Assembly (NCBI GenBank): GCA_029262175.1
Contig: JAJCZV010000072.1
Coordinates: forward strand, 152,537 to 216,536
From: Gemmatimonadota bacterium
GTDB lineage: Bacteria; Gemmatimonadota; Gemmatimonadetes; Palauibacterales; Palauibacteraceae
Length of the DNA stretch: 64,000 bases
Direction: 5' to 3'
Within the stretch, counting starts at the first letter, position 1. The number at the start of each line of letters is the position of its first letter. The position numbers were made by a program, and so were the translations under genes. Positions 7,701 through 57,415 of this stretch are shown piece after piece. Under the pieces are notes generated by a model. It worked only from the letters and a program-made list of their open reading frames with translations, was not told the origin of the DNA and ran no database searches.

Positions 7701-8135
7701 CGCCTGCGTGCCCTCGAGGCCCTTGAGTTCCCAAGTCAGTCCGCCATCGACCGACTTGTAGATGCCACCGCCCGGCGAGATGGAGTTTCTCGAATCTTCC
7801 TCGCCGGTCCCGGCCCAAATGATGTCGGGGTCACTCGGTGCGATCGCCAAATCGCCCATCGACACCACGCGCTCGTTGTCGAACACGGGACGGAACGTCG
7901 TGCCGGAATTCGTGGTCTTCCAAATGCCGCTCGTAGCGCCGGCGACAAAAAAGGTCCCCGTGCCCGGTATCCCTTCGATGTCGGTCACACGTCCGGCGGT
8001 GTTCGCCGGTCCGATCGATCGCCAAGAGAGGCCGTCCATAAACGTGGCGTCGTCCACAGCCAAGCCTTGGCTATGCGCGAGACCAGGCAGGGCGATGAGC
8101 GCGACTAGGACTACGAGAGCGAGACGTCTGAACAT
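4794..8135 (-). CDS. secreted BNR/sortilin (VPS10)-type repeat protein with Gly/Pro-rich low-complexity C-terminal region
   Basis: ORF 4794-8174; probable start ATG 8135 (MFRRLALVVLVALIALPGLAHSQG signal peptide). Many BNR-like repeats (S.DGG.TW: YKSVDGGLTW, YRTTDGGDTW, WKTTDGGDTW, YRSADGGDTW, FFSRDGGKT, YVSTDRGGSW); C-terminal ~250 aa glycine-rich. Confidence 0.75.
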   Translation of the reverse strand: MFRRLALVVLVALIALPGLAHSQGLAVDDATFMDGLSWRSIGPANTAGRVTDIEGIPGTGTFFVAGATSGIWKTTNSGTTFRPVFDNERVVSMGDLAIAPSDPDIIWAGTGEEDSRNSISPGGGIYKSVDGGLTWELKGLEGTQAIGRIVVHPTKADWVYVAALGHPWGANDERGIYRTTDGGDTWDRVHFVSADAGFVDIDIHPRNPEILWATSWERVRGPYYLQSGGPGSAIWKTTDGGDTWDKVSGGGLPETTLGRLEVAIAPSYPRVVYALVEAEAPEEADENGDKHGTGLYRSADGGDTWEFMNANNSRPFYYSGLWVAPDDPDLVFWSSLFFSRDGGKTVGNPAQGVHVDFHALWWDSSNPDHFVLGNDGGIAITRDRGGNYDFPNTLAIGQFYAVSFNMDTPYRVCGGLQDNSTWCGPSRRASGSIDNHMWFQIGGGDGFFAPQDPTNPDIVFGESQQGRIYWRNTRTGEQHSLQQPDWRERTKPLRDSIAVLSGDDPDQPPASARAQIEALQALVTADSVLLDMRFNWNTPLELSPHDPQTLYIGSNRVLKWTYDTDEMQPLSPDLTYADPEKIKVATSTTGGITPDVTGAENFATIVSLAESKLNEGELYAGTDDGRVWRTPEGAEWIELTDRFPGVPAGTYVSRIEPSNHDPDRFFVTFDNHRRDDYSPYVYVTHDRGETFANISSNLPSGAPDFVHVVREDPINPNLLFVGTDVGAYVSTDRGGSWSRFMNGLPTVPVHDLRIHPRDHELIAGTHGRSVYIADIAPLQQLAGGRLPDAPVVFQSRTAVQHGDTPFGGEFIAQSTFQGDAGEYGAEIAYYVPEAVATQLGEAARAAMREQRDAAGEQAGPPAGEQAGPPAGGPPGFAGRRGGGGGPGRGGAGVQASVAILDASGDTVQTLTAPVVAGINRVRWDLDRRGAPAEMSPSERADSIRNARMYTEIGDSLVAHEDVDRATMDQVLGMVQGGNQAGIRRMFGGGGGGQAAGSGWTERAGERYPEAGQADGGGRGPGQRAGGAAGPGGGDPEATREVFQQLMGALRDRGAGGFRRFFGGGRGGGGGLADPGTYTVAITIGDETYTTSVEVVRKEGFGFWDEPDSEGNRR
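5522..5569. repeat. 24-nt in-frame tandem duplication inside BNR/sortilin gene
   Basis: ctccggcgggtgggcc(c/t)gcctgct repeated twice back to back; encodes EQAGPPAG-EQAGPPAG in the minus-strand protein. Confidence 0.6.
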
Positions 8136-13319: not shown

Positions 13320-14348
13320 ATGAGCCACCACCTGGGTCACGGACACGAGGATGGTCACGGCAAAGTCCGCGGGGGCGCCGCACGCGCAGGCATCCGACGG
13401 CGGCTTTGGTGGGCCCTCGGCCTCGTGGTGCTCTACATGGGTGCCGAGGTGGTGGGCGGCCTGCTGAGCGGATCGCTGGCGCTGCTTGCCGACGCCGGCC
13501 ACATGCTTTCGGATGCGGGCTCGCTCGGACTGGCCTTGTTCGCCATGTGGTTCGCAACCCGTGCCGCCCCCGCGCACCGGAGCTACGGGTATCACCGAGC
13601 GGAGATCCTGACCGCACTCGTGCACGGCGGCACCCTACTCGCCGTTTCGGTTCTGATCTTGGTCGAGGCGTGGCAACGCTTTCGGGCGCCGCCAGAGGTG
13701 GAGGCCGGCATACTGATCGCGGTCGCGGGCGGGGGCCTGTTGGTCAACGTCGTCGGTCTTTGGCTTCTGCACGGTGGCCGGGAGCATAGCCTCAACGTCC
13801 GGGGAGCTTGGCTACACGTCTTGACCGATGCGCTAGGAAGCGTGCAGGCGATCGTAGCGGGCGCAGTCATCCTGGCGTTTGGATGGACCTTGGCGGATCC
13901 GATCGCTTCCGTGGTGATTGCCCTGTTGGTCGCGTTTTCCGCTTGGCGCCTGACCCGCGAAGCCGTCTCGGTCCTCATGGAGGGAGTCCCCCCGCATCTC
14001 GACATCGATGGGGTCCGCGAAGCCCTGCTCGGCGTCGACGGTGTGGATGGCGTACATGACCTGCACGTTTGGACGATCACGTCCGGGTTCGTCGCGCTCT
14101 CCGTCCACGTGACATCAAAGAGCGACAGACACTCGGACTTGCTGGGGCGCCTCAGCCGCGAACTCGAGCATGAATTCGGGATTCACCACACCACGATTCA
14201 GGTCGAGTCCCCCGGTTTCGACGAGTGTGGCGCCCCCTGCCCTCCCGCCCCGGCGGACGCGGCTTCCCATGGGAGCGGGCCGGGTCCGCTCGACCCGTTG
14301 AAAATCCGAACCCCCCCAGCCAGCTTCGATGGACCGGCGTCCGCCTAG
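13320..14348 (+). CDS. cation diffusion facilitator (CDF) family divalent metal efflux transporter (CzcD/ZitB-like)
   Basis: 342 aa; His-rich N-terminus (MSHHLGHGHEDGHG), six TM helices, CDF motifs (LLADAGHMLSD, HVLTDALGSV), C-terminal cytoplasmic domain. Confidence 0.8.
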   Translation: MSHHLGHGHEDGHGKVRGGAARAGIRRRLWWALGLVVLYMGAEVVGGLLSGSLALLADAGHMLSDAGSLGLALFAMWFATRAAPAHRSYGYHRAEILTALVHGGTLLAVSVLILVEAWQRFRAPPEVEAGILIAVAGGGLLVNVVGLWLLHGGREHSLNVRGAWLHVLTDALGSVQAIVAGAVILAFGWTLADPIASVVIALLVAFSAWRLTREAVSVLMEGVPPHLDIDGVREALLGVDGVDGVHDLHVWTITSGFVALSVHVTSKSDRHSDLLGRLSRELEHEFGIHHTTIQVESPGFDECGAPCPPAPADAASHGSGPGPLDPLKIRTPPASFDGPASA

Positions 14349-15932: not shown

Positions 15933-18900
15933 ACAACAGGGTCCGGCCGGCCGAGAGCGGCAGTCGAGGGTCGAGGCCGTTGTCTCGTTCGAGATTGAAC
16001 CCCTCGTTATAGACGATCCAGAGATCGGTGCCCTCGCGGAAGTGGTACCGAAGCCGTGCGTTCACGCTGGTTTGGTCGATGACGGAGTTGTACTGACCAA
16101 ACGTGCTCAGCGAGAGGTGGGTGTTGAGCGCGAAGTCCAGTCGCAAACTCGCCAGCTGGGTCGTCAGATCCTCTCCGTCAAACTCGAAACGATTGATCGA
16201 GTAACTCGGACGCAGCTCGAGGTGACTCGAGAGGTTGAAGGCCGGCGTGAAGCTGGTACCGACGCGTCGTCCATCGTAGAAGCTGCCGGCGGACCCCGAG
16301 ATCTGGCCACGCACCGGCAGGCTTCGGGGAAGCCTCCACGTGAGGCCCGCCTCGTGAAACCAGTACTCGTTCGGTTCGATGGTGAGTCCGGCGACCTGGA
16401 ACGTGTCTCGAACGCTTTCGAAGCTCGAGGTGGACGAGAAGATAAAAAAGCCACCGTTCTTGAGCCCGACCAGAAACTCCGGGTTGATCGACCTCGATTC
16501 GGGCGTCTGGTCCCCGTTCCGGTAGTAGTGGCCGGTGTCGAGCCCGAGCGAGACAGTCCTCAAACTGGAGTTTTCTCCAAGGAACCACGCATAGGCGAGT
16601 TCGCCGCCGTAGAAGCTAAAATCTTTTCGGGATTGGAAGCCGAGTCGCGGCAGATAGTCGGGACCGACACGGCCGTACTCTCCCGCATACGAGAAGCCCT
16701 CTTGTTTCCTACGCTCCCACTTCGCACGGATGAGTCCGGCGTCGAGCGGACTGCCTTCTTCGACCACTTCGTCGAACGTTTGCGCCCACTTGACGGTGAC
16801 GTACTCGTCGCCGAACGGGCGGACGGTCGCGTCGAGCCCGTAGGCGACATTGTTCTCACCCGTGTCTCCCAGACGCGTGGTCACCATCGCACCGACCGAA
16901 GAGAAGGGGTTGAGGATCTGCTGACTGAGCCGAGCCACGCTCATGTTCTCGCCTGGTCGGTCGCCCTGGGCCGCCGTCTGCATGCTGAGCAGACCATAGT
17001 CCAAACCTCCGATCTGCCCGACAAAGCGAGCTCCTCCATAAATGCGCGTCAGCTCACCGCCGGTTAGACCGATCCGTCGACTAAAGAAGAGCCGATCCGT
17101 GAACCCGCCCGTCCCGAAGTCGAACGTCGAAGAGCGAGCCTGGAAAAACTGACGCTTCTCAGGAAAGAAAAGAGGAAAACGCGTGAGGTTGATCTGTTGA
17201 TCGTCGGCTTCGACCTGCGCGAAGTCGGTGTTGACCGTCAGGTCGATGGCCAGGCCGGACGAAGGAGACCATTTGACGTCGAGTCCGGGCTCTTGCGTGT
17301 ACTCGTCTTCTACGACGAACCCGGCGGCCGCGACTTCGGGCGGCGAGTGAAGGACGGGGACCTGCGACAGACCTCCGAGCAAGTAAGGGGTGACGTAGAT
17401 GGGCGCCGAACGCTGCACACCCCGCAACCGCACCCGCTGCGCGAGCGAAGGTTTGCCAAACCCGAAGAAGCCCCAGGCAGGCGAAACGTCGGGAAAGACA
17501 TGGCGCTCGTTCTTGCGACCGATGGAGCGGTACACGCTCATCCCCATCACGACCGCGTCGTCGGTCGTTTGGAACCCGAGCGACGAGAACGGAATCCTCA
17601 TCTCGGCGAACCAGCCTTCGGCGGTCGTCCGCGTCGCCAGATCCCAGTGAGCGTTCCAATCGCGATTGAACGTCGGCTGTCCCAAGGTAAACTGTGCGTC
17701 GTTGGCGATGCTCCGATCCGAACGTGCTCCGTTCGGATTCGCAGAGAAGGCCAGACCCGTCTCGTAGTCGTTGTAGCTATCGAGCACGATCGAGAACTCG
17801 TCGTCGCCGCTCGAAGCGTCGCGATAAAACGTGTTCGCTTCTATGCCGCCCGGATCCGAGTCGAACATGCTCCCGGCGACATAGAGGTACTCATCATCAT
17901 AGCCGACCCGGAACTCGCTCCGCTCGGTAGGATCTTGGCCATAGGTCGGCGAGTACACGCTGATCGGGTACGGCTCGATGCCGGCCCACGCGCCCTCATC
18001 GATGACGCCGTCGAGACGGATGCGACCGGAGATCCGTGGCAGGTCGATCGGTATCCGTCGTTGAGCAAGGTCCGGCGTACCCGACGCGGCGGCCGTCTCG
18101 ACCACCGGGTCCTGGACCACGTTTGTCGTGACGTCCGGCCTGGGAGCTTTCTCCGGGTCGGCTGCGGGCGGCGCGTAAGCCGTAGCCACGCGGGCCCAGG
18201 GTATGGCCCGCAGCGGCCAGGGCTCGATCAGCCCCGCAAGCCGAGACAAGAACAACACGAGACGGGGCGCCGGAAGCACGACTCCCCTGGCGTCGAATCG
18301 ATCCGCGCGCGACTCCGTGGCGATACGGGTTTCCGTGACCAGTCGACCGGACCCGGGGACGACCCAGGCGTCGGAGTATCCCGAGCGTTGCACGGCTACG
18401 AGCGCCGGGTCCGCTCGGCCCCGGGTCGGAAAGTCACCGACATGAATCTTGAACCAGGGTCCGGACTCGATCACCCGGACCGGGTACTCGCCCCCCAGGG
18501 TCTCAACCAGTGCCTGTGCGTGCTCCACGACCTCGATCGAGTCCGCCGAGGCAAACGCTTGCACCGTGAGGCGCGCGATCGACGGGGCGCCATCCTTCGC
18601 CGCGGGCTCCGCCGCTGATCTCGACCCGGGGCCCACTCGAGCGGGCGCGCGCGTGACCCAGGCATCGTCGTACCCGGCCCGTCGCAACTCCAGCAGTCCC
18701 GGCCGAGCCGCAGCCGACGAGCGGTACTCGCCTACCTGGAGCTTGAACCATCCATCCGACCTCACGATGCGGACCTCGTAGGCGTCGCCGAGGCGCTCGG
18801 ACAACGCGCGGGCCTGCACAGCTACTGCGACCGAGTCCGTCGATGCGAAGGCTTGAATCGCGTAGGTGTCGGATTGCCCGTTGGCGGGTGTCGCGAAGAA

Positions 18901-19026
18901 TACGGTGCAAAAACCGGTCAAGACGAGAAGACGGATCGCCACGAACGGCCGCGCGCCACGCGACGGCCGAACGCCATCAAACGCGAGCTTGCTTCGGCCC
19001 TTGTGACCTTCGTCCGTCGTATTCAA
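15904..19026 (-). CDS. outer-membrane-associated protein: signal peptide + two SPOR (septal peptidoglycan-binding) domains + CBM9-like/DUF5916 domain
   Basis: 1040 aa; signal (FVAIRLLVLTGFCTVFFATPANGQ); two SPOR-like repeats (YAIQAFASTDSVAVAVQARALSERLGDAYEVRIVRSDGWFKLQVGEY...; LTVQAFASADSIEVVEHAQALVETLGGEYPVRVIESGPWFKIHVGDF...); then CBM9-like (RLDGVIDEGAWAGIEPYP) and long DUF5916-like region ending ...LLLKYSHTFGF (C-terminal Phe). Confidence 0.7.
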   Translation of the reverse strand: MNTTDEGHKGRSKLAFDGVRPSRGARPFVAIRLLVLTGFCTVFFATPANGQSDTYAIQAFASTDSVAVAVQARALSERLGDAYEVRIVRSDGWFKLQVGEYRSSAAARPGLLELRRAGYDDAWVTRAPARVGPGSRSAAEPAAKDGAPSIARLTVQAFASADSIEVVEHAQALVETLGGEYPVRVIESGPWFKIHVGDFPTRGRADPALVAVQRSGYSDAWVVPGSGRLVTETRIATESRADRFDARGVVLPAPRLVLFLSRLAGLIEPWPLRAIPWARVATAYAPPAADPEKAPRPDVTTNVVQDPVVETAAASGTPDLAQRRIPIDLPRISGRIRLDGVIDEGAWAGIEPYPISVYSPTYGQDPTERSEFRVGYDDEYLYVAGSMFDSDPGGIEANTFYRDASSGDDEFSIVLDSYNDYETGLAFSANPNGARSDRSIANDAQFTLGQPTFNRDWNAHWDLATRTTAEGWFAEMRIPFSSLGFQTTDDAVVMGMSVYRSIGRKNERHVFPDVSPAWGFFGFGKPSLAQRVRLRGVQRSAPIYVTPYLLGGLSQVPVLHSPPEVAAAGFVVEDEYTQEPGLDVKWSPSSGLAIDLTVNTDFAQVEADDQQINLTRFPLFFPEKRQFFQARSSTFDFGTGGFTDRLFFSRRIGLTGGELTRIYGGARFVGQIGGLDYGLLSMQTAAQGDRPGENMSVARLSQQILNPFSSVGAMVTTRLGDTGENNVAYGLDATVRPFGDEYVTVKWAQTFDEVVEEGSPLDAGLIRAKWERRKQEGFSYAGEYGRVGPDYLPRLGFQSRKDFSFYGGELAYAWFLGENSSLRTVSLGLDTGHYYRNGDQTPESRSINPEFLVGLKNGGFFIFSSTSSFESVRDTFQVAGLTIEPNEYWFHEAGLTWRLPRSLPVRGQISGSAGSFYDGRRVGTSFTPAFNLSSHLELRPSYSINRFEFDGEDLTTQLASLRLDFALNTHLSLSTFGQYNSVIDQTSVNARLRYHFREGTDLWIVYNEGFNLERDNGLDPRLPLSAGRTLLLKYSHTFGF

Positions 19027-19077
19027 CGCGCCTCTCGCAAATTACTCAACGCGCTTGACGTAAATCATTCAACGCGC
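19023..19077. repeat. three direct repeats of TCAACGCGC(C/T)T with 23-bp spacing in divergent intergenic region
   Basis: tTCAACGCGCctc.. / cTCAACGCGCttgacg / tTCAACGCGCttgtcg at 19023, 19046, 19069; first copy overlaps the start codon of the 15904-19026 gene. Confidence 0.55.
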
Positions 19078-19311
19078 TTGTCGCCAATTGGGGACGAGGA
19101 ATAGGGTGGACGATGCCTGAGCGCGCCAGGGGCCGCGAAAGCGTGCCCACCGGAAACGGTGGCGCCGCCTCTTGGCGTTCCAGGCTGCGGTGACGCAGAT
19201 TCGACCATGCTGGAGATCAGAGAGACCGAGAAAGCCGACCCTGTCGCGCGGAATGCCGCGCTGGCGGTCGTGGGGCCAAGCCGTCTTATCGGCCTTTGGC
19301 TCTGAACTGAT

Positions 19312-20643
19312 ATGGACATTGCCCGCATCCTTCCGTCTCTCTTCGGACTCGGCCTTCTGTTGCTGCTGTCAGGGTTCTTTTCGGGGTCGGAGACCGCCCT
19401 GTGCGCGCTCTCCCGAGCTCAGATCGGGCGGCTGCGAGGGGATACGAGGAAGAGCAGCCGCTTGATCGTCCGATTCGTCGATGATCCGCGGCGCCTCTTC
19501 ATCACGATCCTTCTGGGCAACACGCTCGTCAATATCTCCTTTGCCACGCTCACGGCGTCTTTGATCTACGGACTCTTCGGGGCCGGGCCCTCAGGGCCCG
19601 CGATCCTGGTGGCGACGCTCATCATCACGCTTGCCCTTCTCGTTTTTGGAGAGATCACGCCCAAGACGTTCGCCATTCGGCACGCGGAGCGGTTTGCTGG
19701 CGTCACGGCCCCGATCCTGTGGGGGTTCTCGATCCTGATCGCGCCGTTGCGCCGCGTGCTCCGCTTCGTGACCGACCTGTTGCTGCCTCTTTTCGGCGGC
19801 GTCCCGGTGATCACAGATGAGCGGATCACGTCCGAAGACCTGAAGGCCTTGATCGTGGCGCAAGGGCATGGAACGCTCGACCCCGATGAGCGCGCGACGA
19901 TCGACCGGATCCTGAATCTGCGGGAGATCGATGCGCACGAGATCATGGTGCCGCGCACCGAGTTGGTAGCCATGCGGAGCACGGCCACCGTCGGAGAAGT
20001 CCTCGAACGTGCCCGAGATGTAGGGTTCTCGCGGATTCCCATCTACCGTGACCGAGTCGATGACATCTTCGGCGTTTTCCGCGTCAAGGACTGGCTTGCG
20101 TGGGAAGGGCAAGGGCTGCGCGAGCTGAGCATTGATGAGTTTCTGACTCATCGCGGCGGCCTCGCCGAGCCGGCAGGACCGCCCCTGGTGCACGCCCCGT
20201 TCTTCAAACCAGAAATGTGTCGCGTCGCGGACCTGTTCGCTTCGTTCAAGGCGAGTGGGAGCAAGGTCGCTTTCCTCGTGGACGAGTTCGGCGGGATTTC
20301 CGGATCGGTCACGATCGAAGACCTCGTCGAGGAGGTGGTAGGCGAGATCGGCGATGAACACGATCTACCGGGTTTCGACGCGGACTTCACGCAGAGGCCA
20401 GACGATCCGTCCGTATACGATGTGCCGGGTCGGACCAGCCTCCGCCTGGTGAACCGCCGGCTGAACCTCGAGTTGGACGAGGATCTGGCGGAAACGATCG
20501 GCGGATTGATCGTCACGCGTCTCGGTCATATCCCGGTGGCTGGTGAGTCCATTGAAATGGATGGCGTGCGGTTTGAGGTGTCCTCCGCGGGGCGTCGCAA
20601 TGTGACGTCGGTCACCATCTTCTTGCCTTCGGCGCGCCCGTGA
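19312..20643 (+). CDS. CNNM/CorC-type (hemolysin-family) Mg2+/Co2+ transport protein: DUF21 TM domain + CBS pair + CorC_HlyC domain
   Basis: 443 aa; FFSGSETAL motif, four TM helices, CBS pair (IMVPRTELVAMRS...GFSRIPIY...), CorC_HlyC C-terminus. Confidence 0.8.
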   Translation: MDIARILPSLFGLGLLLLLSGFFSGSETALCALSRAQIGRLRGDTRKSSRLIVRFVDDPRRLFITILLGNTLVNISFATLTASLIYGLFGAGPSGPAILVATLIITLALLVFGEITPKTFAIRHAERFAGVTAPILWGFSILIAPLRRVLRFVTDLLLPLFGGVPVITDERITSEDLKALIVAQGHGTLDPDERATIDRILNLREIDAHEIMVPRTELVAMRSTATVGEVLERARDVGFSRIPIYRDRVDDIFGVFRVKDWLAWEGQGLRELSIDEFLTHRGGLAEPAGPPLVHAPFFKPEMCRVADLFASFKASGSKVAFLVDEFGGISGSVTIEDLVEEVVGEIGDEHDLPGFDADFTQRPDDPSVYDVPGRTSLRLVNRRLNLELDEDLAETIGGLIVTRLGHIPVAGESIEMDGVRFEVSSAGRRNVTSVTIFLPSARP

Positions 20644-22001
20644 CCGGCGTGTCCGTTCTCGGCCTCTTGGCGGTCGGTGGCGTACTCGCGCAGGCAGGAG
20701 GGGCCGTCGGCGGCGCCTTGCCGTTGGGTCTGACGTTCCTCGGGCTTCTCACGTTGCGGGCTTTCTTCGCGGGCTCCGAGACGGCGCTTGTGTCACTGGA
20801 TCGGGCGAGGGTTCGACAGATGGCCGCGGACGGGCACAAACGCGCTCGCATCATCGGACGCTTGATCGATGATCCCGACCGCATGCTCGCCATGACGCTG
20901 GCCGGCACCAACCTGATGAGCGTGATCCTCGCCCAGACCGGGCTGGCCTTGGTGATCGTTCTACTCCCGACGGCGCCCAGCGCACCGTTGATCGCGACCG
21001 GGATGACCACCCTCCTCGTGCTCATCTTCGGCGAGATTCTTCCGAAGACCATCTTTCGCCTGAAGGCTCGCGATCTCGCGCTTCGCTACGCGTATCTCCT
21101 CCGTGGCTTCGATGTCTTGCTCGTCCCGGTCGTGCGCGCGATCAGCGCGATCACCGGCGCGATCGTGTCGCTACTGGGCCGGCGCATGGCGGCCACTTCG
21201 CCGGATGCCGTCCGATCCGAACTACGCCTGCTCGCCACCTTGGGTGAGAAGTCGGGGGGGATTCCGCGCGATCAACGTCTGATGATCCACGGGGTGCTCG
21301 ACCTGCGGGAGCGGCGCGTCGAGGATGTGATGGTCCCGCTGGTCAACATGGTCGCGGTCGAACTTACATCGGATCTCGCCGGCCTCCGCGAGTTGGCCGC
21401 GAGCTCCGGATTCTCTCGAATCCCCGTCTATGAGAACCGCATCTTCAACGTCATCGGAATCGTCCACATTCTCGATGTGGTTCACGCCGAGGCCACCGAG
21501 GGGAGCCTCGAGCGCTTCGTCCGACGGGATGTCCGATTCGTACCGGAATCAAAAAAAGTCAACGCCTTGCTGCGGGAGATTCAGACCGGTCCGCACACCA
21601 TGGTGTTCGCCGTCGATGAGCATGGGGGCACGACGGGTTTGCTCACCGTCCAAGATCTGGTGGAAGAGGTATTCGGACAGCTGGCTCCCGTCGGCGCGCG
21701 CGCCGAGTCGGTGCGCTTGATCGGCGCAAAAATGTTGGAGTGCGATGGGGGAACCGAGGTGGAGACGTTGGTCGAAGACTTCGGGATTCCGGTACCGGCG
21801 GGCGACTACGAGACCATCGCCGGGTTCGTGCTCGAACGAATGGGAGCCGTCCCCCCGCCAGGAGAGCGGCTCGAAACCGCCGACTTCGTGCTGACCGTGG
21901 CCGAATCGGATGTGCGGGCCGTTAGACGAGTGATCATTCGCGTCAAGACCGATACGACGGTGCCCTGGGATGAGTCCGCGCCTTCGGACGGCAAGGCCTG
22001 A
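20640..22001 (+). CDS. second CNNM/CorC-type transport protein (tandem paralog)
   Basis: 453 aa; same architecture (FFAGSETAL..., CBS pair VMVPLVNMVAVEL...GFSRIPVY, CorC_HlyC); GTG start overlaps upstream stop (GTGA). Confidence 0.75.
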   Translation: MTGVSVLGLLAVGGVLAQAGGAVGGALPLGLTFLGLLTLRAFFAGSETALVSLDRARVRQMAADGHKRARIIGRLIDDPDRMLAMTLAGTNLMSVILAQTGLALVIVLLPTAPSAPLIATGMTTLLVLIFGEILPKTIFRLKARDLALRYAYLLRGFDVLLVPVVRAISAITGAIVSLLGRRMAATSPDAVRSELRLLATLGEKSGGIPRDQRLMIHGVLDLRERRVEDVMVPLVNMVAVELTSDLAGLRELAASSGFSRIPVYENRIFNVIGIVHILDVVHAEATEGSLERFVRRDVRFVPESKKVNALLREIQTGPHTMVFAVDEHGGTTGLLTVQDLVEEVFGQLAPVGARAESVRLIGAKMLECDGGTEVETLVEDFGIPVPAGDYETIAGFVLERMGAVPPPGERLETADFVLTVAESDVRAVRRVIIRVKTDTTVPWDESAPSDGKA

Positions 22002-22063
22002 GCTCTCCACGCGTTGAAAGCCCACCCGGGCGACACACAAAGGGGCGAGCGCGCGGGGCGATA

Positions 22064-22147
22064 TGCCGGAGGAGGGACTCGAACCCTCAAGGGATTGCTC
22101 CCACCGGATTTTGAGTCCGGCGCGTCTGCCAGTTCCGCCACTCCGGC
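22064..22147 (-). tRNA. tRNA-Leu (anticodon CAA), 84 nt with long variable arm, CCA not encoded
   Basis: Minus strand: GCCGGAGTGGCGGAACTGGCAGACGCGCCGGACTCAAAATCCGGTGGGAGCAATCCCTTGAGGGTTCGAGTCCCTCCTCCGGCA; 7-bp acceptor stem, anticodon loop CTCAAAA, T-arm GGTTCGAGTCC. Confidence 0.85.
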
Positions 22148-22416
22148 CAGGCTACATGATGTACCTTCCGGTCAGCCGAGTCGCCAGCCGGGCATACTCC
22201 GTCGGGAGACTACTGGCACGAGGTCTCGTCGTGTATTTTCAAGAGAGATCGCCGGGAGGTCCACCCTGTTCCCCGACCGTCTGAACGCTCAGGCGAGCGC
22301 GTAGCTTTTCGGCTCCCTTTGACCTTCGAATCGAGAACGATGACGCAAGGAATAGATCGACCCACATCCGCGAGCGCGGGCTGGAGCGGATTCTCCGGCG
22401 AGCCGGGCTCCGGCTG

Positions 22417-23787
22417 GTGGTAAGCCTCGACGGGGCCGTCGAGACCGATTCGAAGGCGCGCGAGGCCGGGGCGGCGCTCGCAGAGCGCCTCCACGACGAA
22501 GGTCTGGACGCGGCGCTGAGCCAGGCGCGTGGCTTACACCCCGCGGAGCTGGCCGGCGCGCTCGGCGGGCTGGAGAGCGGTGACCGGGCGATGCTGCTCG
22601 CGGGCTTGCGGCTCGATGAGGTCGCCGCCGTGGCCGGGTATCTCGAGCCGAGGTTGCGACCCACGGTTCATCAAGGTCGGTCGAGCCAGGAGCTGAGCGA
22701 GCTCGCGATGATCCTGCCGGACCATCTCGCCGCCGACATGGTCCAGTCACTGGAGCCGGACGTCGTAGAGGCGGTCTTTGGTGGGCTTTCCGAGCGGGTG
22801 CGTGAGCGGCTGGGCGCGTTGGCCGCCTATCCGCCCGACACGGCCGCAGGGCGAATGACCGGACAGGTCTTCGCCGTCCGGCAAGACCAGACGGTCGCAC
22901 AGACGATCGCGGCCCTACGGATCGGTCGACCACAAGCGCACCGCCCGTTCTACACCTACGTCACCGACGCCGAAGGGCGATTGGTCGGCATCGTCGGCTT
23001 CAACGCGCTGCTGTTCGCCGCGCCTGCAACCTCCATCCGAGACCTGATGCAGGAGGTCACATCGGTACCCGCCGGCACAGCGGAGGTGGAGGCGGCCCGG
23101 CTGCTTCAGCGACGCAAGGTGCTGGCTCTGCCGGTAGTGGACGACGAGAACCGCCTCCTGGGAGCACTCACGATCGACGACACGCTCGACGTGCTCGAGG
23201 AAGCAGCCACCGATGACATTCTGCACTTGGCGGGCGTCAGCGAGAACGAGGCCCTCGAGAGCGTTCGGGACTCCGTGCGCTACAGACTACCCTGGCTGGC
23301 CATGAATCTCGTGGCCCTGCTGCTGGCAGCCTGGGTCATCTCGCGGTTCGAATCCACGATCGCCAGCGCCGCCGTCATCGCCGTGTTCCTGCCTGTCGTG
23401 CTCGGCCAGGGCGGAAACGGCGGGCTCCAGACGGTGACCGTAGTCGTGAGATCGCTCGCGCTTGGCCGGATCGTCCCCCGCAATACGCTGCGCGTGACAG
23501 GGAACGAGCTCGCCGCCGCGCTCGTCACGGGCGGCGCTGTCGGAACCAGCGTGGGACTCCTGGCCTGGGGCTGGCAGGGTAACCCCTGGCTCGGGCTGGT
23601 CGTGGGGGCCGCCATCTTTGCCAACCAGCTGGTGGGAGCGGTGGCGGGCGTCTGCTTTCCGATGGGGCTCGCGCGAATCCGCCAGGACCCGGCCGTATCG
23701 GCCCCGATCTGGCTCACGAATGCCACCGATGTCCTGGGAGCACTCCTTTTGCTCGGCCTCGCAACGCTCCTGATCTCCTACCTATGA
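22417..23787 (+). CDS. mgtE: magnesium transporter MgtE (MgtE_N + CBS pair + MgtE TM domain)
   Basis: 456 aa, GTG start; CBS pair, TM domain with GNGGLQTVTVVVRSLALG and conserved Asp-containing C-terminal helices. Confidence 0.8.
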   Translation: MVSLDGAVETDSKAREAGAALAERLHDEGLDAALSQARGLHPAELAGALGGLESGDRAMLLAGLRLDEVAAVAGYLEPRLRPTVHQGRSSQELSELAMILPDHLAADMVQSLEPDVVEAVFGGLSERVRERLGALAAYPPDTAAGRMTGQVFAVRQDQTVAQTIAALRIGRPQAHRPFYTYVTDAEGRLVGIVGFNALLFAAPATSIRDLMQEVTSVPAGTAEVEAARLLQRRKVLALPVVDDENRLLGALTIDDTLDVLEEAATDDILHLAGVSENEALESVRDSVRYRLPWLAMNLVALLLAAWVISRFESTIASAAVIAVFLPVVLGQGGNGGLQTVTVVVRSLALGRIVPRNTLRVTGNELAAALVTGGAVGTSVGLLAWGWQGNPWLGLVVGAAIFANQLVGAVAGVCFPMGLARIRQDPAVSAPIWLTNATDVLGALLLLGLATLLISYL

Positions 23788-25142
23788 CGCACATAGACGA
23801 GTCTCCGACCGACGATCCCAAGGATCCGATCACCCAGCTCGTCGAGCTGATCGAGCAAGGGGCCCGAGCGGAGGCGCTACAGGTCGTCCGGGAGCTGCAC
23901 CCGGCGGACCAAGCGGGCCTCGTGGCGAGCGTGGACACCGAGATCCGGGAACTCATTGTCCAGGAGCTCGCGTCCCACGAGCTGGCGGCCATGCTGGAGT
24001 ACTTGGAGCCTCACTACCGCGACGTGGTGTTCGAGGAGCTCGCGCCCGAGGACCTCGCCGACCTCGTCGGGATCATACCGGACGACATCGCGGCCGACGC
24101 GATCCAGGAACTCAGCGGCGCGGAGGCCGCTCGGGTGGTGAGCGCCATCTCCGACGAGGCACGCGACGCGATCGGGCAATTGGTCGGCTACGCCCCCGAC
24201 ACTGCGGCGGGTCGCATGACCGGCCAGCGCGTGACCGTGTCGAGCGACGCCACCGTCGCCGAAGTCATCGAGACGCTGCGTCCGATGAAAGCCGAACGTC
24301 TCCCGACCATTTACGCGGTGGATAGCGACGGCCGACTCCTCGGAGTCGTGGGCCTCCGTGTCCTGCTCATCGCCGAGCCCGAGACGCGCGTCGCCGACAT
24401 CGCCCGAGAGGTCGTGTCGGTGCCGGCGGAGACCGATCAGGAGGACGCGGCCCGAATCCTCGCGCGGTACAACCAGGCGTTCCTTCCGGTGGTGGCTGCG
24501 GACGGCGGCCTCTTGGGCACCCTGACCGCCGACGACCTGCTCCATGTCCTGGATGAGGAAGTGACCGAGGACATGTTCCATCTGGCGGGCGTCAGCGCGG
24601 ACGAGGACCTCGAGAGCATCCGCAAGTCGGTGCGCTACCGGCTCCCGTGGCTGTACGCGAACCTCCTGACCGTGCTGCTCGCCGCTGCGGTCGTGGCGCT
24701 GTTCGAAGGCACGTTGGCCCAGGCCGCGGTCCTTGCCGCCTTTCTGCCGGTCGTGGCGGCCCAGGGTGGCAACGCCGGCATCCAGACGGTGACGGTCGTG
24801 GTCCGGTCGCTCGCCTTAGGCCGGATTACGGCGGACAGTACCCTCCGGGTGGTGCGACACGAACTCGCGACGGGACTCGTCACCGGTGTGGTCAGCGCGC
24901 TCGCGGTGGGGCTGGTGGTGTGGGCATGGCAGGGCAATGTCTGGCTGGCGGGGATTCTCGCCATCGCGGTCGTGGGCGACGTGCTCATCGGCGTGGCCGC
25001 GGGCGTAGTCATCCCGATCGCTCTCCAGTCCATGCGCCAGGATCCGGCGCTCTCGGCCGGGATCTGGCTGACCACCGTCACCGACGTCTGCGGGTTTTTC
25101 CTCTACCTGGGAATGGCAACGCTGGTCGTCACACACCTGTGA
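23784..25142 (+). CDS. mgtE: magnesium transporter MgtE, tandem paralog
   Basis: 452 aa; ATG overlaps upstream stop (ATGA); same domain order, GNAGIQTVTVVVRSLALG motif. Confidence 0.8.
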   Translation: MTHIDESPTDDPKDPITQLVELIEQGARAEALQVVRELHPADQAGLVASVDTEIRELIVQELASHELAAMLEYLEPHYRDVVFEELAPEDLADLVGIIPDDIAADAIQELSGAEAARVVSAISDEARDAIGQLVGYAPDTAAGRMTGQRVTVSSDATVAEVIETLRPMKAERLPTIYAVDSDGRLLGVVGLRVLLIAEPETRVADIAREVVSVPAETDQEDAARILARYNQAFLPVVAADGGLLGTLTADDLLHVLDEEVTEDMFHLAGVSADEDLESIRKSVRYRLPWLYANLLTVLLAAAVVALFEGTLAQAAVLAAFLPVVAAQGGNAGIQTVTVVVRSLALGRITADSTLRVVRHELATGLVTGVVSALAVGLVVWAWQGNVWLAGILAIAVVGDVLIGVAAGVVIPIALQSMRQDPALSAGIWLTTVTDVCGFFLYLGMATLVVTHL

Positions 25143-25165
25143 GCGTGAGCCGCCCGTCCTTCGAC

Positions 25166-26869
25166 CTAGCGGTCGGAGCGTCGGCGACGCACGTGGACGT
25201 CGACCATGGTGAGGCGGTCGACCTGGACGAAGGAGTGCACGCCCTCCACGCCGGGTTGAAAGTCCGGCGTGATGCAGCTGACCTCGATCTCTCGGTACTC
25301 CGTCGGCGTCAGGGCCTCGACCTGTTGCAGCCGAACGCCCCATCCGTATCGGAGCGCGCAGTCCTGCGCCGGTCGAACGAGCGCTCCGTTTGCCCGCACG
25401 AAGGCGCCGGCCGGGCGTGCGCGCCGCACATCCGACACGACCGGATTTTGGGCATGCGGCGTCCAGACGGTTGCGAGCGGCGAGTCGGCATAGAACACGA
25501 ACAGCTCGTCGTGGTAAGAGGCGCCGATATTCTCCCGGATGTTCGTGAACATCCACCACCGACCCTCATGCTCGACAAGCGTCGTGTCTACCGCATCGAT
25601 GTCATCTTTGATCACGCGAACGAGACTCCACTCACCCGGGAAGCGGTCGCACTTGTAGAGCTCGATCGTTCGCGCTTCCGTCGACTCGGGGATCATGTAC
25701 AGGTCATCTTCGAACTCGAACACGAACGGATAAGAGAGGTGATACGGTCGCTCCAACACCGGCTCCGCCTCGGACACGTTCCCGTCGTCATCGATCGTGA
25801 GCCAGGCGATCCGGCCTCGCTTCGTCTCGTAGAGATATTCCTCAAAAAACACGTGATATTTGTCGTCCCTTCGAACGACGTGAGGATCGGCCCAAAACCG
25901 ATCCGATGGCGAGATGATCGATTTGAAACGCCATAGGGAGGTGCCGAAGCCATCGCCAAGCCCAAACCGTAGCTGCCAATGATTCCACCCCGTCATCGTC
26001 GCCAGCTTTCGCTTGGCCAACCGGCGATAGAGGCCAACGAAGGGACGCCATAGTTCCCGATTGGTGGGCGACAGAAACAGGCGCTGCGAATAGAAGGGCG
26101 CCGGGTCTTGAGCCTGTCGATGCACCGCCAGAAACTCTTCGCGTCCGAGGGCGTACAGTTGATCCAACCTGCGCGGGACCATCGACAACGTCTTCCAGTA
26201 GTATTTGCTCTTGTTGGCGCGCACCGACATCAATTCGGTTCCAGACCAACTGCGGTCCAACACCAACCCGTTGTCGAGGTCCTCGTTCAAGATCTGAAGA
26301 ATCGAGCCCGTCACTGGCCATTCGAGCAGTACTTCCCAGAATCCGGCCGGACCGCCTCGATTGACTCGGTTGTCGCCGTGATGAAAGGACCAGACACCGA
26401 CGGCCGCCGCTTCGAGAATGCCGCCACGCAAGATCCGAAACCCGAGTCTCAGTAGAACATCGAGATCTTTGGCTCTTACCTCGGCCACTTCCTCATCAGA
26501 CAGAAAGTCCGAGAACCGCGTACGCCTCGGCGACACCTCGATGACCGGCACCCCTTGGAGCAGCTCCGACACATCTTCGAACACGAACGCGTTTCGTGGA
26601 TCCGGTCCCGCGAGACGGCGCTTGCGATCCAAACGTTGGAATAGCAGATAGAGAAACTGCTTGCGGTTTTTCCAGTAGCTCGCGATCCGACCGAACGGTC
26701 CGCGAGGCGCCGCATGCCCACCGCCTCCGTCATTCATGACGATGCACGAGATCTCGGCGCTCTCCCCGGCCAGGATGCGCTCCAACATGCGAACCACCCA
26801 AGCATGTTGGTTGTAGGAGTCCATCAAGAGCCCCACTCGAAGCGGGCGCTTCGTGGAAGCTGAACTCAT
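25166..26869 (-). CDS. fusion protein: formyltransferase-like N-terminal domain + C-terminal GH43/GH130-like beta-propeller domain (NCBI-style name: glucosamine inositolphosphorylceramide transferase family protein)
   Basis: 567 aa; N-terminal region matches Fmt/formyl_trans_N pattern (LRVGLLMDSYNQHAWVV..., DLDVLLRLGFRILRGGILEAAAVGVWSFHHGDNRVNRGGPAGFWEVLLEWPVTGSILQIL NEDLDNGLVL); C-terminal WADPHVVRRDDKYHVFFEEY... resembles five-bladed propeller hydrolase/phosphorylase folds. Confidence 0.5.
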   Translation of the reverse strand: MSSASTKRPLRVGLLMDSYNQHAWVVRMLERILAGESAEISCIVMNDGGGGHAAPRGPFGRIASYWKNRKQFLYLLFQRLDRKRRLAGPDPRNAFVFEDVSELLQGVPVIEVSPRRTRFSDFLSDEEVAEVRAKDLDVLLRLGFRILRGGILEAAAVGVWSFHHGDNRVNRGGPAGFWEVLLEWPVTGSILQILNEDLDNGLVLDRSWSGTELMSVRANKSKYYWKTLSMVPRRLDQLYALGREEFLAVHRQAQDPAPFYSQRLFLSPTNRELWRPFVGLYRRLAKRKLATMTGWNHWQLRFGLGDGFGTSLWRFKSIISPSDRFWADPHVVRRDDKYHVFFEEYLYETKRGRIAWLTIDDDGNVSEAEPVLERPYHLSYPFVFEFEDDLYMIPESTEARTIELYKCDRFPGEWSLVRVIKDDIDAVDTTLVEHEGRWWMFTNIRENIGASYHDELFVFYADSPLATVWTPHAQNPVVSDVRRARPAGAFVRANGALVRPAQDCALRYGWGVRLQQVEALTPTEYREIEVSCITPDFQPGVEGVHSFVQVDRLTMVDVHVRRRRSDR

Positions 26870-28735: not shown

Positions 28736-29863
28736 TCAGGCGAGGTTGAAGAACGCCAGGCCGAGAATCACGTAGACGCCGAGAAGAAGCGCCCCCTCCA
28801 TCCAATGGGTCTCGCCATCGTCGGAGATCTGGCCGATGACGAGGACCGAGATCGCGACCGCCACCACCTCGAGCTCGGTGAACACGAGATCCATCGGTTG
28901 TGGCGCGATGACGTAGGAGAGCAAGACCAGGAGCGGGGCGATAAAGAGGGCGATCTGCACCGAGGACCCGACAGCGATCTGCAGGGATAGATCCATCTTG
29001 TTTTTCAACGCCACCAAGACCGCCGTCGAGTGTTCGGCCGCGTTTCCGACGAGCGCGACGACAATCACCCCGACGAACACTTCGTTCATACCCAACGAGT
29101 GGGCCGCCTCTTCCGCGCCTCCGACCAGAATCTCGCTCATCCAGCCTACGAACGTGGCCGCACCGACCAACATCAGCATCGCACGCTTCGCGGACCAAAC
29201 GTGGGATTCGTCGGGAACCGCCTCTCCGTGACGAGCGACAGCCTCGACCTCCGAGTGTCCCCCCGCATAGAGATGGCCGTGGGTGCGGAGTGAGAAGACC
29301 AGAGACAGGCCGTAGCAGATGATCAAGACGATCGAGATCTCGAGGCTGAGCGAACCCTCGGCGATCGCGGCCGGCCCCTCGGATTCTTGAATGAAATGGA
29401 ACACGGCAGGAACGACGAGACCGACGGCGCTGAGCAGCAGCATCGTGGCGCCGAGGTTGGCCGCGGTGCGATTGAAGGATTGGCGGGGATGCTTCAACCC
29501 CCCGAGCACGGCACTCAGACCAAAGACCAGGAGCACGTTTCCGATGATCGAGCCCGTCAACGAAGCCTTTACGAGATCGTAGAGACCCGCACGGAGCGCG
29601 AAGATCGCGATGATGAGTTCCGCCGCGTTGCCGAACGTCGCGTTGAGGAGCCCGCCGAGGCCGGCTCCGACTCGTTCCGCCAGCATCTCGGTCGCCTTCC
29701 CCATGAGGCCAGCCAGCGGGATGATCGCGACGGCGGAGGAAACAAAGAGCACGGTGGGCGATGCGTGGAGGAAATACTCGAGCACGAGCGTGATGGGGAC
29801 AAAGACCAGAAACAGCATGAGGACGTTGTCGGCTTTGATGCGGCCCGCCACATCGGCCTCCAT
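28736..29863 (-). CDS. Ca2+/H+ (cation/proton) antiporter, CaCA/CAX family
   Basis: 375 aa; 11 TM; two GNAAE alpha-repeat motifs ([15 protein letters not shown] and [12 protein letters not shown]). Confidence 0.8.
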
Positions 29864-30103
29864 CCAGGGGTTCTGGTCGTATGTCGATGGGAAGAAGGCG
29901 CCGTCCGGATTCGAACCGGAGTAGGGGGCTTTGCAGGCCCCTGCCTAGCCACTCGGCCACGGCGCCGCGATGCCGGACAGCCTAATGAGTCCAGAACCAT
30001 CGGGAAACCCCGACGCCGGGCCGGTCGCCGCAACCCGTCGGGCGGTAACGGCGGGCATTTCCGCGGCTTGTGCGGGGTCCGAACCGCCCTCTATACTCGC
30101 GCG

Positions 30104-51570: not shown

Positions 51571-51693
51571 CCGAGGGACGTCTCCGTACACTGGTTCGTG
51601 ACAGTTGAGCTACCCTGCGAAATCTAACGATCGGTCGGACTTGACGGGTTCCCGTGGTGGCGGTCGGACGCGAAGTGCGCCCGACCGTGAAGT

Positions 51694-53577: not shown

Positions 53578-53695
53578 GTGTCCCCCTGCCTAAACCCGCT
53601 TCGTGTCCCCGGCCTCAGTGCCGGGCGCGATGTGGCCCCGCCGCAGCGAAGCCCTTTGATCCAAACGATTTGCTGCAAGTAGGGTTCCGCCGTCC

Positions 53696-55777: not shown

Positions 55778-57415
<1,638 letters not shown>

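Follow-up and report, generated by a model that had tools for sequence, protein, structure and literature searches.

The MgtE and CorB structures solved so far are all homodimeric (PMC5882242, PMC8242095). Residue roles have been assigned for the MgtE of T. thermophilus (TtMgtE; PMC5882242, PMC5529423) and, at the Mg site, the pi-helix and the ATP site, for MtCorB (PMC8242095), and both sets were used here to read the proteins described below. SLC41 and the archaeal double-MgtE proteins are single chains that contain two MgtE TM repeats and lack CBS domains (reviewed in PMC9276622).

The locus considered here lies in a stretch of 64,000 nucleotides from a Gemmatimonadota bacterium (hereafter the window), in which an earlier reading of the sequence (the original prediction) saw a magnesium-homeostasis island. 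On balance, we favour an unremarkable piece of chromosome where two modules of two genes each, conserved independently of each other, stand side by side, each encoding the two different subunits of a dimeric Mg2+ transporter. Each pair probably builds a two-subunit form of a transporter of which only homodimers have been described.

Two overlapping pairs of transporter genes

Four transporter ORFs lie on the plus strand, where they had been predicted (Table 1). Pfam identified CNNM/DUF21 (E=3e-45), CorC_HlyC (2e-18) and CBS (2e-6) domains in CNNM-A, and the same domains in CNNM-B (2e-42, 1e-15 and 6e-9, respectively); the archaeal CorB 7M1T aligns with both (E about 1e-45). MgtE-A matched MgtE (1e-25), MgtE_N (4e-12) and CBS (5e-12) and MgtE-B did so at 7e-28, 2e-15 and 3e-17; both exceed the cut-off of the NCBIfam equivalog TIGR00400 (scores of 235.5 and 255.7 bits; cut-off 232.75). 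Moreover, TtMgtE (2YVX) aligns end to end with both proteins (E=2e-51 and 2e-57), which share an architecture of MgtE_N, CBS pair and five-TM MgtE domain. Thus, the assignment of two DUF21-CBS-CorC_HlyC and two MgtE genes to one strand is upheld. The overlaps from which translational coupling was postulated for each pair are also real: the CNNM-A stop and CNNM-B start overlap in a 4-bp GTGA (20640-20643), and the MgtE-A stop and MgtE-B start in a 4-bp ATGA (23784-23787). The paralogs are clearly diverged, as had been noted, with 30% identity in the CNNM pair and 50% in the MgtE pair (N domain, 32%; CBS pair, 47%; TM domain, 58%).

Table 1. Features of the transporter locus (positions in the window)
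Feature	Position	Strand	Basis
CNNM-A, 443 aa, canonical subunit	19312..20643	+	Pfam; MtCorB 7M1T alignment; ortholog order
CNNM-B, 453 aa, GTG start, partly degenerate subunit	20640..22001	+	Pfam; 7M1T alignment; ortholog order; fused C half
CNNM-B, additional hydrophobic helix at the N-terminus ('TM0', residues ~6-24)	20655..20711	+	Kyte-Doolittle; fusion linker
tRNA-Leu(CAA)	22064..22147	-	ARAGORN; Rfam RF00005, 58.4 bits
MgtE-A, 456 aa, GTG start, more derived paralog	22417..23787	+	Pfam; NCBIfam; 2YVX; clade A
MgtE-B, 452 aa	23784..25142	+	Pfam; NCBIfam; 2YVX alignment; clade B

The CNNM pair

The orthology and the A-then-B order of the CNNM genes are kept in L007, L008, L009 and L048/L049 (Poribacteria), with 52-70% identity among A-type and 50-73% among B-type orthologs and about 30% across types. 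CNNM-A orthologs are invariably upstream of a B-type gene and CNNM-B orthologs invariably downstream of an A-type gene; seven further metagenome loci show the same tandem order. In six others, a single ORF of about 900-1000 residues carries both CNNM halves, with two CNNM and two CorC_HlyC stretches detected by Pfam. The N half of the fused proteins is 44% identical to CNNM-A and the C half 38-47% identical to CNNM-B, as against 26-29% in the cross comparisons. A database search with one fused protein as query returned 160 proteins at E<=1e-50; among the best 120 clusters, 119 were 878-957 residues long with at least 95% query coverage, giving a count of at least 119 fused clusters, which include Poribacteria and Aminicenantes. 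The linker contains a hydrophobic helix (residues 450-463 in an AF2 model) homologous in position to the N-terminal helix of CNNM-B; the pTM of the model is 0.53, so that the placement of the halves relative to each other is not confident.

The two halves also differ in the Mg site. Both positions corresponding to S21 and S25 of MtCorB are serine in all 118 split A-type proteins and in all 60 fused N halves, but in only 16 of the 60 fused C halves and one of the four split B proteins. Both halves have kept the pi-helix motif. In the window, alignment with 7M1T places S20 and S24 of CNNM-A at the serine positions and N70 at that of S71; G113-E114..P117-K118, FSR and TxxD are present, and all five Mg2+-coordinating positions of MtCorB, together with the pi-helix, are found. 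CNNM-B has R40 and A44 at the serine positions and retains GEILPK, FSR and TxxD. Ahead of its DUF21 domain (Pfam match from residue 33), residues 6-24 reach a Kyte-Doolittle peak of 1.75; this extra helix would place the N-terminus of CNNM-B in the cytoplasm, the topology that the A-linker-B fusions of other bacteria would require. The abundance of A-B fusions and the asymmetric loss of the Mg site favour a heteromer, and it is likely that CNNM-A and CNNM-B together form a heterodimeric CorB.

The MgtE pair

MgtE clades A (18 members used) and B (13) are each monophyletic (bootstrap 100/100). Their nearest relatives, 41-52% identical, come from about 27 Dehalococcoidia/Chloroflexota genome loci, each with a single MgtE. 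As to whether the pair arose by local duplication or by separate acquisition, the tree points to one duplication, the monophyly of A+B having only 70/100 NJ bootstrap support and one derived residue in common. A B-clade gene lies directly downstream of every A-clade gene examined. The two usually overlap by 4 bp; in L005, a gap of 56 bp precedes the called start, and GTGA is present at the A stop. This adjacency is found in at least six different neighbourhoods (the window, L002/L010, L003/L011, L005, L130 and L131) and also in L012. The pairwise distances of A and of B co-vary (r=0.93; 36 comparisons, 9 pairs) at equal rates, and the paralogs remain 47-52% identical, indicating that gene conversion does not operate between them.

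The positions of D432 (the selectivity Asp), E258 (Mg2), D259 (Mg3), D95 (Mg6) and D247 of TtMgtE are kept in both paralogs, E258 as an Asp in MgtE-A. MgtE-A keeps D432 (as D438) and has N196 at the R187 position and H103 at that of D91 (Mg4); MgtE-B keeps D432 and R187 (D434 and R192), and has T175 at the position of Y170 and H254 at that of D250. Among the residues at least 90% conserved in 93 single-copy MgtE relatives, seven were lost only in A, including R187, a ligand of the ATP phosphate, and seven only in B, including Y170 of the ATP site and D250 of Mg5. F227 and N203, which belong to the ATP site in T. thermophilus, are not conserved even in the single-copy relatives, so that nucleotide sensing by this MgtE group is uncertain. 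Clade-fixed differences between A and B occupy 19 of 86 constrained columns in the TM domain, as against one of 61 in the cytosolic region (Fisher p=1.7e-4). Strict co-inheritance, coupling and the reciprocal loss of invariant residues favour a heteromer, and MgtE-A/MgtE-B is a candidate heterodimeric MgtE, with a chance that we put slightly above even; two co-expressed MgtE homodimers would fit these data almost as well.

For the two pairs together, we find it rather unlikely that each paralog forms its own homodimer and that the pairs are sub-functionalised duplicates, which differ in ion preference, affinity or the threshold for gating and are co-transcribed for convenience only. Such an arrangement would agree with the solved structures, with the core transport motifs retained in both members of each pair (GExxPK for the CNNM proteins; D432 and PX6GN for the MgtE proteins), and with the concentration of clade-fixed MgtE differences in the pore domain, as expected if selectivity or conductance had diverged; moreover, the best 150 matches from 1.84 billion representatives, 268-614 aa long, included no fused MgtE A-B protein. 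However, it is difficult to account for the CNNM fusions if A and B do not belong to the same complex, and the Mg-site serines of the B-type halves are relaxed. In the MgtE pair, strict co-occurrence with 4-bp coupling across the neighbourhoods listed above, equal rates and reciprocal residue loss, although not decisive, are typical of obligate partners. Of the sub-functionalisation proposed originally, the divergence stands; over the independent homodimers that it implied, the fusions, co-inheritance and residue losses favour cooperating heteromers.

Substrate of the CNNM pair

Mg2+ is the putative substrate of the CNNM pair and efflux its putative direction, in a family that includes non-Mg exporters. 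The NCBIfam equivalogs for CNNM proteins all score far under their cut-offs (CorC, 127/379; PaeA, 107/500; GldE, 223/376; PRK11573, 170/475 bits) and the mode of action of CNNM/CorB proteins is debated (PMC8242095), as might be expected if the pair exported another cation or a polyamine, or acted as a regulator, and the locus were not a dedicated Mg2+ homeostasis unit. This we consider improbable, given the complete set of Mg2+-coordinating positions and the pi-helix in CNNM-A and the position of the pair next to the MgtE genes. In addition, in two Gemmatimonadales MAGs another CNNM pair overlaps mgtE in an operon-like CNNM-CNNM-MgtE cluster, which lends some support to the idea that CNNM pairs and MgtE are functionally linked.

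Genomic context

The tRNA-Leu(CAA) gene predicted between the pairs is confirmed, but on the minus strand, which had been missed; lying antisense to the transporter genes, it excludes a single four-gene transcript and leaves two transcription units. In Logan SRR15505518, where short reads of the same organism were assembled independently, contigs break inside this gene (one ends at about position 22132 and the other starts at about 22110), so that the join of the two pairs rests on the assembly that gave the window. It is nevertheless very unlikely that a conserved tRNA gene has given rise to a chimeric join: short-read assemblies routinely break at tRNA genes, the two contigs overlap in the tRNA and agree with the window on both flanks, and the 221,963-bp NCBI contig records the same proteins. 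Such an artefact would, in any case, bear on adjacency alone and leave the nature of each pair unaffected.

The adjacency of the CNNM and MgtE modules is not conserved. In relatives, the MgtE pair stands alone at eight loci and the CNNM pair at four, in other neighbourhoods; in one metagenome, the two pairs are on different contigs. No relative examined has the four-gene CNNM-CNNM-MgtE-MgtE arrangement. GC3 is 0.82-0.87 in the MgtE pair, 0.73-0.81 in most neighbours and like that of the neighbours in the CNNM pair, with no clear compositional break at the transporter genes; other parts of the window encode the housekeeping proteins RecN, NAD kinase, RNase Y, PheT, ThrS and GroEL. In agreement with the original prediction, no integrase or att-like repeat was found, nor was a transposase or a duplicated tRNA segment, the sole partial repeat of the tRNA being a chance-level match (18/24) inside a coding gene. 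A-clade MgtE pairs, 67-70% identical, are present in MAGs that bear the labels of three phyla, which suggests that the MgtE pair itself moves horizontally. Thus, despite this spread, the slightly higher GC3 of the MgtE pair and the tRNA gene between the pairs, a horizontally acquired island integrated beside tRNA-Leu with magnesium homeostasis as its cargo is hardly credible, and the locus does not hold together as the unit originally proposed.

Proposed mode of action

Under the preferred reading of two heterodimeric modules, the first would be a CorB/CNNM-type transporter, most likely for Mg2+ efflux and switched on by Mg-ATP at the CBS pairs. Its subunits may pair through DUF21 TM2/TM3 and CBS interfaces, as in homodimeric CorB, with the canonical Mg2+ site carried by CNNM-A and CNNM-B without two of the coordinating serines. 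The second would be an MgtE-type Mg2+ influx channel, most likely an A:B heterodimer that encloses a single central pore, with walls formed by two non-identical TM2/TM5 pairs, a selectivity aspartate supplied by each subunit, and asymmetric cytosolic sites for sensing Mg2+ or nucleotide. An influx channel and an efflux transporter could together act as a push-pull Mg2+ homeostat.

The 4-bp overlaps may provide coupled, roughly equimolar synthesis of the subunits. As originally noted, no M-box lies upstream: the Rfam scan gave neither an M-box nor another cis-regulator at gathering score or E<=10, and the leader is not conserved among relatives. This suggests regulation mainly at the protein level, via the intrinsic N-domain and CBS sensors.

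Comparison with known systems

SLC41 and the archaeal double-MgtE proteins resemble the proposed MgtE heterodimer in having two non-identical pore units and a pseudo-symmetric pore, a likeness in mode of working and not in family membership (PMC9276622); in the window, however, the units are separate full-length chains, each with N and CBS domains. With TtMgtE (2YVX/2ZY9), the MgtEs share the N domain, CBS pair, plug and five TM segments over about 430 aligned residues, the kept ligands given above and the PX6GN motif. Identity is only about 33%, however, and in the P(D/A)X4PX6D motif MgtE-A has the second proline one residue off and MgtE-B lacks it; one gene there corresponds to two co-inherited, translationally coupled paralogs here, with R187 lost in one and Y170 and D250 in the other.

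The CorB homodimers (MtCorB, 7M1T; TpCorB, 7CFF-7CFK) share with the CNNM pair the DUF21, CBS pair and CorC architecture, the full Mg2+-site residues in CNNM-A, and, in both paralogs, GExxPK of the pi-helix and FSR/TxxD of the ATP site. They differ in that the window has two deeply diverged paralogs in a fixed order, one with an extra N-terminal helix and without S21/S25 equivalents, and in that such units are covalently fused in many other proteins.

Heterodimeric ABC exporters are encoded by adjacent, coupled half genes, one canonical and one degenerate in the residues that bind the ligand, and fused full-length versions exist elsewhere. The evolutionary pattern of the CNNM pair resembles theirs, in an unrelated protein family.

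Two pairs of overlapping genes encode CBS-domain transporters

The four plus-strand open reading frames (ORFs) of this locus are present as originally predicted, and their assignment to two DUF21/CorC proteins and two MgtE proteins was borne out by Pfam domains in all four products. The overlaps within the pairs, GTGA at 20640-20643 for the CNNM pair and ATGA at 23784-23787 for the MgtE pair, are real, and so is the divergence of the paralogs to which the same prediction had pointed: CNNM-A and CNNM-B are 30% identical, and MgtE-A and MgtE-B are 50% identical overall (N domain 32%, CBS pair 47%, transmembrane (TM) domain 58%). Because a tRNA-Leu(CAA) gene lies on the minus strand between the pairs, the four genes form at least two transcription units.

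Features of the transporter locus and its surroundings (window positions)
Feature	Position	Strand	Description
CDF transporter gene	13320-14348	+	Cation_efflux + ZT_dimer
Tandem repeat	19023-19089		2.9 copies of a 23-nt unit, consensus TCAACGCGCTTGTCGCAAATTAC; TRF score 85
CNNM-A	19312-20643	+	443 aa; CNNM/DUF21 + CBS + CorC_HlyC (Pfam)
CNNM-B	20640-22001	+	453 aa, GTG start; CNNM/DUF21 + CBS + CorC_HlyC (Pfam)
tRNA-Leu(CAA)	22064-22147	-	between the two gene pairs
MgtE-A	22417-23787	+	456 aa, GTG start; MgtE_N + CBS + MgtE (Pfam)
MgtE-B	23784-25142	+	452 aa; MgtE_N + CBS + MgtE (Pfam)
Na_Ca_ex family gene	28736-29863	-	adjoins tRNA-Cys
tRNA-Cys	29896-29966		
Four paralogous ORFs	47388-55558	-	598-631 aa each; adjoin groEL
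groEL	55778-57415	-	

Membership of the MgtE family was assessed with Pfam PF01769 and NCBIfam TIGR00400, whose curated equivalog cutoff of 232.75 bits is exceeded by both MgtE-A (235.5 bits, marginal) and MgtE-B (255.7 bits). All three Pfam domains, the last being a C-terminal 5-TM MgtE domain, were found in each protein, and both align over about 430 residues to the MgtE of Thermus thermophilus (TtMgtE; 2YVX). For the CorB/CNNM family, the test was the presence of PF01595, CBS and PF03471; CNNM-A and CNNM-B align to archaeal CorB (MtCorB; 7M1T) with an E-value of about 1e-45 each, and were also aligned with MtCorB 7M1U and with CorC 4HG0. None of the named NCBIfam CNNM equivalog cutoffs was reached, the best scores against cutoffs being 223/376 for GldE (TIGR03520), 191/475 for PRK11573 (NF008604), 127/379 for CorC (NF011675) and 107/500 for PaeA (NF052568). 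As judged from their sequences, the two proteins are members of the CNNM family and of none of the named equivalogs tested.

CNNM-A and CNNM-B as a probable heterodimer

CNNM-A orthologs (52-70% identity) are always found immediately 5' of CNNM-B orthologs (50-73%), while identity across the two types stays at about 30%; the pair also occurs in Candidatus Poribacteria and in several metagenome contigs. In six metagenome loci (L053, L055, L059 and L061-L063) both units are contained in one ORF of about 900-1000 aa with two CNNM and two CorC_HlyC stretches (Pfam), of which the N-terminal half is 44% identical to CNNM-A and the C-terminal half 38-47% identical to CNNM-B. A database search with one fused protein as the query returned 160 proteins at E<=1e-50; 119 of the best 120 clusters are 878-957 aa long with a query coverage of at least 95%, and they include entries from Poribacteria and Aminicenantes that are annotated merely as 'hemolysin family protein'. 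These double-CNNM proteins of about 900 aa (P0256-P0375) make up a large uncharacterised family. Poribacteria have both forms, fused (P0261) and split (L048/L049).

The linker of the fused proteins has a hydrophobic helix (residues 450-463 in the AF2 model), which is matched in CNNM-B by an extra N-terminal hydrophobic segment (residues 6-24) ahead of DUF21; this segment would place the N-terminus of CNNM-B in the cytoplasm, as a fusion requires. In the window, a TGA stop (20641-20643) and a change of reading frame divide the two CNNM units into distinct ORFs, which represent the split counterpart of the fused proteins, orthologous half by half. A single-base indel at the GTGA overlap would convert the split form into the fused one. 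An AF2 model of the fused protein P0256, built from a 68-sequence alignment (mean pLDDT 78, pTM 0.53), was neutral with respect to an intramolecular CorB-like dimer.

The Mg2+-site positions considered were S21, S25, S71/Asn, G110 and E111 of MtCorB together with the pi-helix motif G-E-x-x-P-K, the residue roles being taken from the literature (PMC8242095). In the alignment, CNNM-A has every one of the Mg2+-site and pi-helix residues (S20, S24, N70, G113, E114, P117 and K118). CNNM-B has R40 and A44 at the positions of S21 and S25 and retains T90/N91 and GEILPK, a partial Mg2+ site; the nucleotide-site residues FSR and TxxD are also retained. The same one-sidedness extends to the relatives: two serines occupy the S21/S25 positions in all 118 A-type proteins of the split form and in all 60 N halves of fused proteins, but only in 16 of 60 C halves of fused proteins and in one of four B proteins of the split form. 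The position of MtCorB T207 was considered as a further B-specific loss and rejected, as Val is found there in both CNNM-A and CNNM-B.

CorB dimerises via its CBS pairs and TM2/TM3. A heterodimer best accounts for the combination of fused proteins, constant gene order, coupling and degeneracy of one partner only, and CNNM-A and CNNM-B probably form one. Tandem CNNM pairs of other subtypes were also seen in four metagenome contigs (L071, L074, L082 and L102); it thus seems that tandem CNNM paralogs arose, or were kept, more than once.

The MgtE pair is a lineage-restricted duplication

Among 125 relatives in a neighbour-joining (NJ) tree, the MgtE-A-like proteins (clade A; MgtE-A and 17 others) and the MgtE-B-like proteins (clade B; MgtE-B and 12 others) were each monophyletic in 100/100 bootstraps; the two clades together were monophyletic in 70/100 NJ bootstraps and have one derived residue in common. 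Members of clade A are 61-76% identical to MgtE-A. The nearest outgroup is made up of Dehalococcoidia/Chloroflexota MgtEs that occur in single copy: about 27 genome loci each hold one gene. A clade B gene lies directly 3' of every clade A gene inspected, nearly always with a 4-bp overlap, and this A-then-B arrangement recurs, even among the A members that diverge most, in at least six unrelated neighbourhoods; five further pairs are implied by equal-sized contigs. Distances among the A proteins track those among the B proteins (r=0.93), the two evolve at equal rates, and the paralogs are 47-52% identical in every genome. The duplication that gave rise to the MgtE pair is younger and lineage-restricted, and the two genes behave like partners. 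No fused A-B protein was found among the best 150 of 1.84 billion representatives.

Two side observations concern the distribution of the pair. It is found at 67-70% identity in metagenome-assembled genomes (MAGs) labelled Longimicrobiales, 'Proteobacteria' and Thermoanaerobaculia (L010, L011 and L012), and its nearest single-copy relatives are from Dehalococcoidia; the cause is either horizontal transfer of the pair as a unit or unreliable MAG labels. A hybrid MgtE (P0015), from a 2047-bp JGI contig, is identical over its N-terminal ~380 aa to the clade A protein P0008 and over its C-terminal ~75 aa to the clade B protein P0064, the partner on a 4426-bp contig; either it is an A/B recombinant, formed by a deletion between the tandem genes, or the assembly collapsed across conserved TM2-TM3 sequence.

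Functional residues were mapped from studies of TtMgtE (PMC5882242; PMC5529423), whose numbering is used below unless a window protein is named. The PX6GN motif of TM2 is present in both proteins (PVVLGQGGN in MgtE-A, PVVAAQGGN in MgtE-B), and the selectivity residue D432 is invariant (D438 in MgtE-A, D434 in MgtE-B). The second Pro of the TM5 motif P(D/A)X4PX6D is shifted by one position in MgtE-A (PAVSAPIWLTNATD) and absent from MgtE-B (PALSAGIWLTTVTD); the N424 position is Gly in MgtE-B, as in the single-copy nearest relatives. D432, D259, D95 and D247, along with an acidic residue at E258, are retained in both clades. Measured against positions at least 90% conserved in 93 single-copy relatives, seven positions are lost in clade A only, including R187, an ATP phosphate contact, and seven in clade B only, including Y170 (ATP) and D250 (Mg5 site); MgtE-A itself has a His at the D91 (Mg4) position. 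Clade-fixed differences between A and B fall in 19/86 constrained TM columns against 1/61 cytosolic columns (p=1.7e-4), an enrichment in the pore domain; they include Gly/Ala exchanges in TM2 (positions 325 and 330) and changes beside the TM5 selectivity Asp. MgtE-A and MgtE-B may well form a heterodimer with one asymmetric pore built from both. Two diverged homodimers, one of MgtE-A and one of MgtE-B, also fit these observations.

The pairs lie in ordinary chromosome

The original prediction had regarded the locus as an island. This is not borne out: the chromosome around the pairs is ordinary, with no recombinase found among the neighbouring genes and no att-like repeat of the tRNA-Leu found when sought; an 18/24 match to the tRNA at 25440-25463 was discarded, being at chance level and within a coding gene. 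At 0.78-0.79, the CNNM pair has the same GC3 as its neighbours (0.73-0.81), and the MgtE pair a slightly higher one (0.82-0.87). Upstream lie genes for a Ser/Thr kinase, a CDF transporter, a sulfotransferase and a SPOR/CBM9/DUF5916 protein; downstream are those for a GINT1_N protein, a beta-lactamase-fold protein, a Na/Ca exchanger, RecN and NAD kinase and, farther along, RNase Y, PheT, ThrS, biotin ligase and GroEL. The CDF and Na_Ca_ex proteins are further cation transporters encoded within 6 kb of the four genes. The four successive ORFs next to groEL are 32-38% identical to one another, each with a signal- or lipobox-like N-terminus and at least two with poly-proline linkers; they gave no Pfam match.

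The four-gene block was not found in the relatives' loci examined. The MgtE pair occurs without the CNNM pair in L002/L010, L003/L004/L011, L005/L006, L012, L130 and L131, and the CNNM pair without the MgtE pair in L007, L008, L009 and L048/L049; L005 (MgtE pair) and L007 (CNNM pair) are separate contigs of one metagenome. Two short-read Logan contigs of the same organism (L001 and L047; run SRR15505518) begin or end inside the tRNA-Leu gene, at about 22110-22132 of the window; the adjacency of the two pairs thus rests on the assembly join of the window. In L007, a tRNA-Arg(TCG) gene (7725-7799) lies immediately upstream of the CNNM pair on the opposite strand, echoing the antisense tRNA of the window. 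In two Gemmatimonadales MAG loci, L042 (4310-8356) and L044, a same-strand, operon-like CNNM-CNNM-MgtE cluster was found in which the start of the single mgtE shares 17 bp with the second CNNM gene. The CNNM genes of this cluster are of another type: their identity to both A and B is about 30%, the two serines are retained and the additional N-terminal helix is missing. A looser functional linkage of CNNM and MgtE is plausible from this cluster.

Regulation

The absence of an M-box, as originally predicted, was confirmed: RF00380 gave no match at the gathering score in the window, nor at E<=10 in 18800-25400, where no other Rfam cis-element was found either, E<=10 included. The 5' leader of MgtE-A is not conserved in an alignment of five relatives (mean column identity 47%, equal to noise). 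Predictions of sigma-70 promoters (none) and intrinsic terminators (three similar sites against 3.4 expected) were uninformative. As there is neither a riboswitch nor a conserved leader, we infer that the transporters are controlled mostly allosterically. The 23-nt tandem repeat lies between the divergent SPOR/CBM9/DUF5916 and CNNM-A genes; it is unique within the window, was not found in the relatives' loci and is a possible array of operators or promoters.

A tentative model and its relation to known systems

We tentatively suggest that both families could act here as obligate heterodimers made from coupled gene pairs, CorB with one canonical and one degenerate subunit and MgtE with a single pore of two non-identical subunits and asymmetric Mg2+/nucleotide sensors. 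Translational coupling would supply equimolar A and B subunits. MgtE-A:B would be a Mg2+ influx channel, shut by cytosolic Mg2+, and possibly nucleotide, in sensor sites that are now non-equivalent. CNNM-A:B would be a CorB-type exporter activated by the binding of Mg-ATP to its CBS pairs, with the canonical ion site contributed by A and a modified site by B. Substrate, direction and stoichiometry of both transporters are inferred here from family knowledge.

The island framing is ordinary; the paired-subunit reading is testable and useful for the Mg2+-transport field. Structural and mechanistic models of the prokaryotic MgtE and CorB/CNNM families, whose human relatives are the magnesium transporters SLC41 and CNNM, are all based on symmetric homodimers. 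If natural heterodimers exist, their subunits can be mutated separately, which would bring several questions within reach of experiment: the number of ion sites and of sensor sites required, whether the two CorB protomers work alternately, and how a dimeric channel could have given rise to a single-chain two-repeat transporter such as SLC41. The fused and split CNNM-A/B series, with at least 119 fused clusters alongside split pairs and both forms in Poribacteria, offers a comparative set. For annotation, 'two copies' of MgtE or CNNM genes should not be taken as redundancy.

Only the T. thermophilus MgtE homodimer is stated to be well characterised (PMC11309985), and no heteromeric, tandem or fused bacterial MgtE or CorB was described in the literature searched. 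Double MgtE motifs are reviewed as occurring only in archaea, choanoflagellates and metazoa, in single chains without CBS domains (PMC9276622). The proteins of the window belong to known families, and what differs is their proposed heteromeric organisation; an MgtE A:B pore, if real, would be the bacterial two-gene counterpart of the internally duplicated SLC41 architecture.
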